DNA of 8,594 nucleotides. Origin: a virus. Its lineage: Duplodnaviria; Heunggongvirae; Uroviricota; Caudoviricetes. Where the stretch lies: the IMG/VR virus record IMGVR_UViG_2690316210_000003, positions 1 through 8,594 of that record. The stretch is one strand, 5' to 3'. Positions 6,932 through 8,594 of the stretch are shown here, piece after piece (position 1 is the first letter of the stretch; each line of letters starts with the position of its first letter). Under the pieces are notes generated by a model that was not told where the DNA came from, did no database searches, and saw only the letters and a program-made list of their open reading frames with translations. The position numbers and the translations under genes were made by a program.

Positions 6932-8594
6932 ATGCAATCAATCCAATTTAAACGCACACAGACGGCTGGTAAAAAGCCGACGCCGGAACAATTACAGGTC
7001 GGTGAAATCGCTATTCAGATGGCAGACCATGTAATTTACACCAAAGACAAAAATAATGCAGTAGTTCAAATCTCTGTTTCTCCAGAAAAACATGCTGAAC
7101 TTAACACTAAAGTAGACCAGAATAAAACTAATACTGACCGTGTTATTGCTTCCAACAAACAAGAAGCCGCTGACAATCTGGCTGCTGCTAAATCTGAACT
7201 GAATAACACCATTACCACGAAAGATACAGCGACCAATAAGCGCATTGATGCTACTAACACCACTGTTAGTAACTTAACCCAGACAGTTACGGCAAATAAA
7301 ACCGATGCTGATACTAAAATCAATAACCTTACGGGGACAGTTGCGGCAAACAAATCAGCTATTGAAACTACCGTAGCGAATAACAAACGAGACGCGGACA
7401 ATAAAATCTCAGCTTTAACCACTACGGTTAATGACAATAACACCGCAATTAATAGCCGAGTTGATACCACTAACACTAACGTTAGCAACTTAACTAAGAC
7501 TGTTACCGCTAACAAGTCTGATGCTGATAGCAAGATCTCTAGCTTAACTAGCACGGTTGCAGCCAACAAATCGGCTATTGAAACCACGGTAGCAAATAAC
7601 AAGAAAGATGCCGACACGAAGATCACTAACCTTACAGGGACGGTGAATAGCAACCATACCGCTATTAACGCAAAGGTTGACAAAAACAAAACTGATACTG
7701 ATTCAGCGATCGCAGCCGCTAACCGTCGAATTGATGGTATTGAAGGTAGTGGTGATGCTCTTTACATCAAGAAGAATACCAACACTAAACATGGCGGGTA
7801 TCTGTTAAGCAAGACAGCTAACTATCTGGAAGACCAGACAGCACGAGATCTTAACTACTTTGGTGCTTTCCGTACCAATGGTCAAGATGGTTTATTAGAC
7901 CTAACTCTTAACGTTCCTCATTCTTCCGGCGTGCAACATGGGCGCGGATTTACTTTCCAGTATGGTCACAATGGATCACGCGTAGAAACTTACGGTTATA
8001 ACGCACAAGGACAAAAAGCATTTAGCTATAAAGTATATCACGAAGGTGATAAGCCAACTCCTAGCGAAATCGGCGCATACACCAAAGCCGAAGTTGATAA
8101 AATGTTTATCAAAAACGTTAAAATGTCTGTTCCTGCTGGTGATGCAACCCGTGGTTATTTCAAGATTGCAACTGCCACGATCCCACAGAATGGTCGAATG
8201 GTAATGCTTCGTATATTCGGTGGTAATGGTTATAACGTTAATTCTTATGATCAGGTTGACTTTGTAGAAATTGTTATTCGTTCCGGTAACAATAACCCGA
8301 AAGGCGTTAGTATTGCTGCATATCGTCGAAATGCTCTTAACGTTCATCAAGTATTTGCGGTTAATACTTCCGGTGATAACTACGACATTTACGTTAACTA
8401 TGGTCGTTATACCGATAACGTGATTGTCGAATACGGTAAAACTGATGGCGTTACTCTGACAGTACATGATGTTCCTGAATTAACTCTCGTTAAGCCGTCT
8501 ACTGGTGTTACCGATGCTCGCGTTATTACAATGTTCAACACCGAAAACAAAGCCGGTGGATTTGCCCCTATATTTCCAGACATCTGTTATCACT
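6932..8594 (+). CDS. Fibre protein (tail fibre or head fibre), 3'-partial; at least 554 codons
   Basis: Frame is open from ATG 6932 to the window end (checked codon by codon). The N-terminus (IQFKRTQTAGKKPTPEQLQVGEIAI) matches the FKR..TAG..P..L..GEL motif I recall at the N-termini of many phage fibre proteins. It is followed by a Thr/Asn/Ala/Lys-rich repetitive shaft and a Gly/Tyr/Asn-rich distal domain. Confidence 0.75.
   Translation, partial: MQSIQFKRTQTAGKKPTPEQLQVGEIAIQMADHVIYTKDKNNAVVQISVSPEKHAELNTKVDQNKTNTDRVIASNKQEAADNLAAAKSELNNTITTKDTATNKRIDATNTTVSNLTQTVTANKTDADTKINNLTGTVAANKSAIETTVANNKRDADNKISALTTTVNDNNTAINSRVDTTNTNVSNLTKTVTANKSDADSKISSLTSTVAANKSAIETTVANNKKDADTKITNLTGTVNSNHTAINAKVDKNKTDTDSAIAAANRRIDGIEGSGDALYIKKNTNTKHGGYLLSKTANYLEDQTARDLNYFGAFRTNGQDGLLDLTLNVPHSSGVQHGRGFTFQYGHNGSRVETYGYNAQGQKAFSYKVYHEGDKPTPSEIGAYTKAEVDKMFIKNVKMSVPAGDATRGYFKIATATIPQNGRMVMLRIFGGNGYNVNSYDQVDFVEIVIRSGNNNPKGVSIAAYRRNALNVHQVFAVNTSGDNYDIYVNYGRYTDNVIVEYGKTDGVTLTVHDVPELTLVKPSTGVTDARVITMFNTENKAGGFAPIFPDICYH
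7247..7678 (+). repeat. Diverged in-frame tandem duplication, 2 x 216 bp (2 x 72 codons), inside the fibre gene
   Basis: Unit 1 (7247-7462) begins DATNTTVSNLTQTVTANKTDADTKINNLTGTV; unit 2 (7463-7678) begins DTTNTNVSNLTKTVTANKSDADSKISSLTSTV. Both share AANKSAIETTVANNK(R/K)DAD; each unit shows a looser 18-36 residue sub-periodicity. Confidence 0.8.

Follow-up and report, generated by a model that had tools for sequence, protein, structure and literature searches.

The 8,594-nucleotide (nt) window analysed here (positions 1 to 8,594 of IMG/VR virus record IMGVR_UViG_2690316210_000003) is the whole of the draft contig CXAQ01000159.1 of assembly GCA_001261215.1, whose proteins are deposited as Shigella sonnei. 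Insertion sequence (IS) elements occupy both ends of the contig, IS911 at 1-57 and IS2 at 8557-8594, and between them runs a head-to-tail segment of a lambda-like siphophage, which closes with genes for a 140-amino-acid (aa) protein and a 277-aa protein and with a tail-fibre open reading frame (ORF) that begins at position 6932. This ORF probably represents the proximal 541 codons of the lateral tail fibre of a lambda-like temperate siphophage, held in the intact system by the 277-aa protein as adaptor through a joint of the T4 gp36-gp37 type. The fibre as such belongs to a well-known family; what is not trivial, as read from the sequence, is its proposed anchoring by a tail-tube paralogue that bears a gp36-type tail. 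The coordinates of the features are collected in Table 1.

The fibre ORF starts at an ATG preceded by GAGGTGA (6921-6927) as the ribosome-binding site and contains no stop codon up to the end of the window. Within its N-terminal 53 aa, residues 3-48 matched the N-terminus of phrog_1699, annotated as 'long tail fiber protein distal subunit' (E 1.4e-17). The N-terminal motif was 39% identical to residues 4-54 of gp37 of the T4-like Krischvirus RB49, and its pattern, IQFKR..G..P....L..GE.A.N..D...TKD, places the protein in the gp37 family. A tblastn search with the 53 N-terminal residues matched 1177 phage records; in a sample of 60 rows taken over this ranking, all 60 were gp37 or tail-fibre genes, nearly all of them in T4-like genomes of 160-178 kb. 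The fibre-type N-terminal motif that the initial annotation had recognised on this ORF was thus borne out, as was the reading as a fibre and not a head decoration protein: all PHROG matches were to tail-fibre families, RB49 gp37 is 88% identical in the body, and Gp34_trimer and Peptidase_S74 domains are present in the intact relative. The NCBIfam scan matched the window fibre to no head-decoration or head-fibre family, Pfam and NCBIfam scans of the fibre fragment gave nothing significant, and sequence searches of the PDB returned only a marginal match to a construct of tail fibre protein S/S' (8ju3, E 0.11) in the knob region. The fibre ORF, having no stop codon in the contig, was missed in the public gene calls of CXAQ01000159.1; these list instead a 163-aa antisense ORF inside the fibre gene (7976-8467, minus strand), which is almost certainly spurious.

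Fibre residues 286-541 align with residues 67-322 of RB49 gp37, and the nt identity to RB49 over 7799-8556 was 84.8%. RB49 has about 15 residues after the N-terminal motif, whereas the window fibre has a coiled coil of about 230 residues in their place. The fibres of intact Escherichia coli relatives are approximately 1200 aa long and colinear with RB49 gp37 up to the C-terminal chaperone domain. The 1203-aa orthologue of E. coli STEC1575, from a prophage at 1.978-2.002 Mb, can be aligned colinearly to residues 71-977 of RB49 gp37, with 71% identity over 911 aa, and contains Gp34_trimer and a C-terminal Peptidase_S74 intramolecular chaperone (Peptidase_S74 E 1.1e-13). Because this colinearity includes both domains, we regard the fibre gene as an orthologue of gp37, that is, as a T-even distal half-fibre gene of the Krischvirus/RB49 type. 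The tip and chaperone functions of the gp37 family (gp38/gp57A, or a C-terminal Peptidase_S74 as in RB49) are missing from the window copy, which IS2 cuts at residue 541. No homologue of gp34 or gp35 was found in the full prophage maps of the relatives, where a lambda-like siphophage module takes the place of the myovirus gp34-gp35-gp36-gp37 fibre setting. Directly after its tube gene, at 26135-26641 of the stretch examined, STEC1575 additionally has a gene for a 168-aa protein that E. coli E275a lacks. The protein contains Gp38_N, the N-terminal domain of T2-type adhesins, and may serve the tip of the gp37-like fibre as a detachable adhesin.

The 277-aa protein encoded directly upstream is termed 'hypothetical' in nearly all database entries listed, and a few UniRef entries call it 'Phage tail protein'. 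Alignment of its family with the phage's own tube family by hhalign gave a probability of 98.9% (E 3.9e-17), and both the tube fold and tube homology were recovered. Its gene does not occupy the position of the major tube gene, directly upstream of the G/T-type chaperones and the tape measure, where the relatives have a separate 158-aa gene. The C-terminal 71 aa match the end of RB49 gp36 at 34% identity; the two proteins align end to end, the adaptor finishing in ..KVYSTNEKPTPAEINAVAKTDRIDFGEY and RB49 gp36 in ..QLYHEGNKPTPADVGAVPLNAVIDFGTF, each to its last residue, and both close in IDFG.(Y/F). Residues D273 and G275 are invariant in 22 adaptor homologues. The adaptor shares only these last 70 residues or so with gp36; the N-terminal region of gp36, which joins gp35 (Pfam Phage_T4_gp36), had no Pfam match in the adaptor. 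The gene order had also raised the idea that the 277-aa protein is a tail terminator with a dock for neck fibres. This was rejected because the 140-aa protein is the terminator and the 277-aa protein's N-terminal domain is a tube paralogue, and only the neck position was kept, as a rival.

The same C-terminal tail and the same N-terminal motif occur as a pair in T4-like phages. The gp36 proteins of T4 and JS98 end in QDFGYY, those of PG7 in QDFGTY, of Matisse in IDFGSY and of Acinetobacter phage ZZ1 in LDYGTF, and in each of these five phages the next gene is gp37 with the N-terminal motif. With RB49 included, the D(F/Y)G.(Y/F) end was present in all six T4-like gp36 proteins checked, and the 277-aa protein has a tail of this kind. 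Among 45 IMG/VR contigs with an adaptor homologue, the homologue ended in D(F/L/A)G.(Y/F) in 44, and the N-terminal motif opened the next gene in 44; the lone exception is a broken locus. In nine of nine other loci examined, too, the gene that follows the adaptor opened with this motif, and the synteny was likewise seen in loci from Salmonella, Proteus, metagenomes and the record of phage DCP80. In a Proteus mirabilis prophage (8882-11516 of the stretch examined) the fibre is in two pieces: the first, of 198 aa, consists of the N-terminal motif, a coiled coil and a ..MDFGTF end with no tube domain, and the second is a 675-aa protein like RB49 gp37 that again begins with the motif. This split fibre suggests that the pair of tail and motif acts as a reusable connector for head-to-tail concatenation. 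Variant pairs were observed in IMG/VR loci, ..VLDAGEF with ..VRHYRTKEAG.. and ..IDLGTF with ..IKFKRTS.., which may represent co-variation across the joint in a few lineages. The DCP80 record (PQ671644.1, 'Escherichia phage DCP80', 141 kb, filed as Gaprivervirus) opens with the same siphophage head-tail module, and its adaptor homologue has 698 aa with a long fibre-like extension; the record appears to be a chimera in which a T4-like phage and a contig of prophage origin were assembled together.

The initial annotation had described a Thr/Asn/Lys-rich shaft followed by a Gly/Tyr/Asn-rich domain, which we confirmed, and had placed in the shaft a diverged in-frame duplication of 2 x 216 nt at 7247-7678; this is real, and the interval is the same repeat offset by 6 nt. 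A direct-repeat search paired 7226-7408 with 7442-7624 (73%), and the best codon register sets 7241-7456 against 7457-7672, with identities of 70% at the nt and 76% at the aa level. Residue identity at a lag of 72 was 0.45, compared with 0.11 in shuffles (z = 13.3). TRF gave no 216-nt repeat because the copies are too diverged. The codons of the two copies differ at 29 synonymous and 17 non-synonymous positions, so the duplication is old and under purifying selection. The proposed sub-periodicity of 18-36 residues held at its lower bound (lag 18, z 4.2) and failed at its upper one (lag 36, z 1.2); the significant sub-lags were 18, 29 and 43, of which 29 was the strongest. The hydrophobic residues of the shaft have a sharp 3.6-residue period, and the three sub-lags correspond to whole helical turns. 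All of them fit this period, which predicts an alpha-helical coiled coil for the shaft, like that of Ur-lambda Stf (PMC12617516). Pfam matches to the shaft were weak and sub-threshold, and every one was to a coiled-coil family.

Variation in repeat copy number, which had been expected for such a shaft, was not found in the complete E. coli genomes or in IMG/VR. Nine E. coli relatives are gap-free across the entire 869 nt of the N-terminus and shaft, and three more across 845-851 nt. The IMG/VR shafts fall into discrete classes in which the gp37 body begins at residue 293, 288, 265 or 233; the duplication is confined to the 293 class, and the differences between classes are not multiples of 72. 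Domain swapping, by comparison, is evident 3' of the N-terminal motif: E. coli relatives that have undergone it are alike over no more than the initial 157, 273 or 382 nt, beyond which they diverge and switch to other shafts and tips that include 'pyocin knob' and 'head spike fibre' domains. The duplication is therefore best described as old and fixed at two copies, with shaft diversity arising by the swapping of whole variants. A homologue search with the N-terminus and shaft yielded 15 proteins, mostly partial, and was of little use because fibre genes sit at contig ends.

A terminator-like hairpin after the 277-aa gene was confirmed (Table 1), and the fold of the whole spacer (6859-6931) had an energy of -29.6 kcal/mol (z = -6.3). 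Its presence had led to the suggestion that the fibre is separately regulated; however, the 73-nt spacer between 6858 and 6932 contains no promoter-like (sigma-70-like) site, and this suggestion was not sustained. A GC hairpin is found at the same position in the Salmonella, Proteus and DCP80 relatives. Since it recurs there with unrelated sequences, a conserved role as attenuator or stabiliser within the late operon is the better reading of the hairpin. In the minimum-energy fold of the spacer, nt 6859-6865, just past the adaptor stop codon, pair with the Shine-Dalgarno sequence of the fibre gene (6921-6927), and this predicted pairing may provide translational coupling. A similar strong terminator-like hairpin with a T-run lies at 5262-5283, directly 3' of the gene for the protease-capsid fusion.

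The homology of the fibre gene to RB49 gp37 and to the E. coli relatives ends at 8556, and the remaining 38 bases of the window are IS2. Positions 8556-8594 (39/39 nt) are identical to 17182-17220 of the E. coli E275a stretch examined, which abut its annotated IS2 transposase gene, and the nominal IS2 boundary is 8557. The distal domain that the initial annotation saw running off the window therefore does not do so: IS2 breaks the gene at 8556/8557 and leaves 541 fibre codons, so neither a receptor-binding tip nor a C-terminal chaperone can come from this ORF. With the E275a copy as a proxy, reading into IS2 reaches a stop codon 140 nt past the window end, after 541 fibre and about 59 IS-derived residues. 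The outcome named beforehand as contrary to a fibre, a stop shortly past the window with no distal binding domain, is thus nearly what was found; to say that the receptor-binding end lies outside the window obscures the break in the gene, although the missing distal part, some 660 codons, may survive beyond IS2. An identical junction is present in three other assemblies. E275a itself has an independent IS2 in the same fibre gene (17182-18515 of that stretch); it lies about 680 nt further downstream than the insertion in Shigella and is flanked by a target duplication of 5 bp (GAACG). Insertional inactivation by IS2, an IS3-family element, shows no unusual difference here from that in Shigella generally: the terminal 38 nt are those of annotated IS2. 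IS expansion and prophage decay are typical of Shigella.

We accordingly regard the gene as a pseudogene that IS2 has disrupted, within an S. sonnei prophage in decay, and it is very likely that the window holds dead DNA, an IS-riddled prophage remnant with a fibre fragment that has no present function. IS2 cuts the fibre and IS911 cuts the terminase, the exact adaptor protein was found on only four short contigs, and the IS2 junction shared by several assemblies indicates clonal inheritance. The other 8.5 kb, however, retain intact ORFs with 100% identity from one assembly to another, the region, if transcribed, could still yield a truncated product of about 600 aa, and the contig shows only part of the prophage. 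This reading concerns the status of the gene and does not compete with its identity.

The rest of the segment is consistent with a lambda-like siphophage. The head genes of the window comprise the fragment of the large terminase gpA, a 164-aa head-tail joining protein, a lambda-family portal, a fusion of prohead protease and major capsid protein, and a 96-aa FII-like protein; the 140-aa, 277-aa and fibre genes follow in this order. The gpA gene is full-length (634 aa) in the E. coli relatives. Its interruption by IS911 is peculiar to the present strain, since two other assemblies with 100% identical DNA extend the terminase to the left of position 58. The nearest complete E. coli prophages are about 90% identical to the window, and the map of these relatives continues from the fibre through the 158-aa tube protein, G/T-like chaperones and tape measure to tip proteins that include a J-like protein with the lambda receptor-binding domain. 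Short tandem repeats of 15 and 24 nt were observed at 3710-3796, where the 667-aa fusion protein has its Glu/Lys-rich linker from protease to capsid domain.

Table 1. Features of the window and of the adaptor and fibre genes
Feature	Position	Strand	Evidence or remark
IS911 end	1..57	.	100% identity to annotated IS911 of phages Sf6 and SfII
Lambda-type large terminase (gpA), 3' fragment	58..986	+	Pfam GpA_nuclease, E 2.1e-42
Tail terminator protein, 140 aa	5593..6015	+	
Putative fibre adaptor, 277 aa	6025..6858	+	Tube-paralogue domain, linker, knob and gp36-type tail
Adaptor tube-paralogue domain, residues 1-160	6025-6504	+	hhalign to the phage's own tube family
Adaptor Gly-rich linker, residues ~163-205			
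Adaptor fibre-knob-like domain, residues ~207-271			
Adaptor gp36-type C-terminal tail, residues 272-277 (RIDFGEY = 271-277)	6838-6855	+	
GC-rich hairpin, terminator- or attenuator-like, between adaptor and fibre genes	6885..6904	+	Hairpin scan; fold of 6859-6931
gp37-type N-terminal joint motif, residues 1-51	6932..7084	+	phrog_1699 match; RB49 gp37 similarity
Alpha-helical coiled-coil shaft (predicted), residues ~52-285	7085..7786	+	Holds 2 x 216-nt duplication; 3.6-residue hydrophobic period
gp37 body, residues 286-541 (= RB49 gp37 67-322), cut at 8556	7787..8556	+	88% aa identity
IS2 end, interrupts fibre gene	8557..8594	.	100% identity to end of annotated IS2, E. coli E275a

From these homologies and the synteny of the two motifs we infer how the fibre would be docked, where on the tail it would sit and in what number. 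The 277-aa protein would act as the fibre anchor: its 160 N-terminal residues presumably form a ring in the tail tube or become part of one, and the Gly-rich linker would connect this ring domain to the small fibre-knob domain. The terminal ..IDFGEY would serve as a gp36-type tail that receives the gp37-type N-terminus of the fibre, with the tail and knob together forming the likely dock. Because the adaptor ends in a gp36 tail and the fibre begins with a gp37 N-terminus, the two would together recreate the gp36-gp37 joint of T4, and a T-even distal half-fibre would hang on a siphophage tail without gp34 or gp35. If three linkers meet at one trimer, a hexameric ring would carry two fibres.

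Several points weigh against this arrangement. A hexameric tube ring with trimeric fibres would require a 6:3 arrangement. The adaptor knob is only weakly similar to gp36 (34% over 73 aa; phrog_16472 E 0.004), and similar knobs recur within many fibres. The Pfam and NCBIfam scans gave no match to the adaptor, and AF2 assigned low confidence (pLDDT below 60) to its C-terminal 115 residues. In T4 the distal rod is (gp36)3-(gp37)3, and the gp36-gp37 interface was fitted only at low resolution in the virion study (bioRxiv 10.64898/2026.03.06.709160); for this reason the role of the DFG.Y tail in T4 is itself deduced from conservation.

The T-even system (T4, with RB49 gp37 as the closest) resembles the present one in the gp37-type N-terminal motif, the 88% identical body and an upstream partner with a gp36-type ..DFG.(Y/F) tail. 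The virion, in contrast, is that of a lambda-like siphophage (gpA terminase, lambda-family portal, G/T-like chaperones, J-like tip), the N-terminal part of gp36 is replaced by the tube-paralogue domain, gp34 and gp35 are lacking, a coiled coil of about 230 aa is added after the motif and the gene is truncated by IS2. In T5, a ring of the tube paralogue p140, surrounded by the collar p132, holds the fibre pb1, and its authors stated that fibre anchoring must differ in lambdoid phages (PMC10038345). The present system likewise uses a duplicated tube protein and a fibre with an N-terminal coiled coil and, in the relatives, a C-terminal intramolecular chaperone. However, no equivalent of the separate Ig-like collar p132 was seen here; p140 consists of two tube domains with no fibre-joint domain, whereas here the dock appears to be fused to the tube paralogue and the T-even joint to be used; and the N-terminus of pb1 is unrelated to the gp37 motif. 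In Ur-lambda, the N-terminal domains of Stf form a dodecameric collar at the gpV/gpM junction, with flexible linkers that bring three anchor domains together in one trimer (PMC12617516). Stf, like the present fibre, is the trimeric side fibre of a lambda-like siphophage and has a long coiled coil in its proximal part and a distal part related to gp37, but it anchors itself by its own N-terminal collar domain and is encoded downstream of J with tfa; here the fibre gene lies between the terminator and tube genes, a separate tube paralogue is the putative anchor, and the fibre has a gp37-type N-terminus. Judged by gene position, the fibre is not of the Stf type; in STEC1575 the annotation shows no fibre gene behind the J-like gene.

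The adaptor and fibre genes follow the terminator gene and precede the tube gene and those for the chaperones, tape measure and tip, a location that would also suit a neck or head-proximal, whisker-like fibre, in which the tube-paralogue ring sits directly under the terminator and the fibres emanate from the head-tail junction. A fibre at the same position in the relative EC24 does contain the NCBIfam domain GTA_spike_fiber (head spike fibre). That domain was found only in this different fibre of EC24, and neither the window fibre nor its STEC1575 orthologue matched it; moreover, the fibre body is homologous to receptor-binding long tail fibres, gene order is only a weak guide to position, and the side fibres of Ur-lambda, too, anchor at the tube/tip junction (PMC12617516). 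We therefore consider a neck position unlikely.

It is still less probable that the 277-aa protein is a major or co-polymerising tube subunit, with its knob as a surface decoration like the Ig domain of lambda gpV and the DFG.Y tail for folding or trimerisation, and that the fibre attaches elsewhere by its own N-terminus: its tube fold and tube paralogy and the hairpin after its gene, often seen behind abundant structural genes, would fit, but every relative has a separate tube gene (153-251 aa) before the G/T-like chaperones, the tail motif stands at the extreme C-terminus of both gp36 and the adaptor with the N-terminal motif gene directly downstream in 44 of 45 loci, and the 198-aa Proteus module has the tail and N-terminal motif without a tube domain. 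Tube proteins with decoration domains are common, such as lambda gpV and SPP1 gp17.1*, which counts in favour of a tube subunit.

For the anchoring by the adaptor-fibre pair, no published description of a tube paralogue bearing a gp36 tail as a fibre anchor was found. We give roughly even chances to the pair being a third, undescribed mode of side-fibre anchoring in lambda-like siphophages, in which a duplicated tube protein with a gp36 tail would provide a universal, portable joint common to myo- and siphoviruses that can also chain modules, as in the 198-aa Proteus piece.

These findings carry a caution for draft contigs, since the apparent run-off of the gene at the window end is an IS junction. 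For the S. sonnei strain the consequence is mundane: its fibre is inactivated by IS2 and the prophage is decaying. More widely, several hundred proteins of the 277-aa family in prophages of Escherichia, Shigella, Salmonella, Proteus, Edwardsiella and Providencia can provisionally be read as tube-paralogue fibre adaptors. If the joint is real and portable, it would explain how a T-even distal half-fibre that is nearly complete (85% nt identity to RB49) passes between temperate siphophages and virulent myophages, and it would offer a defined splice point for host-range engineering.

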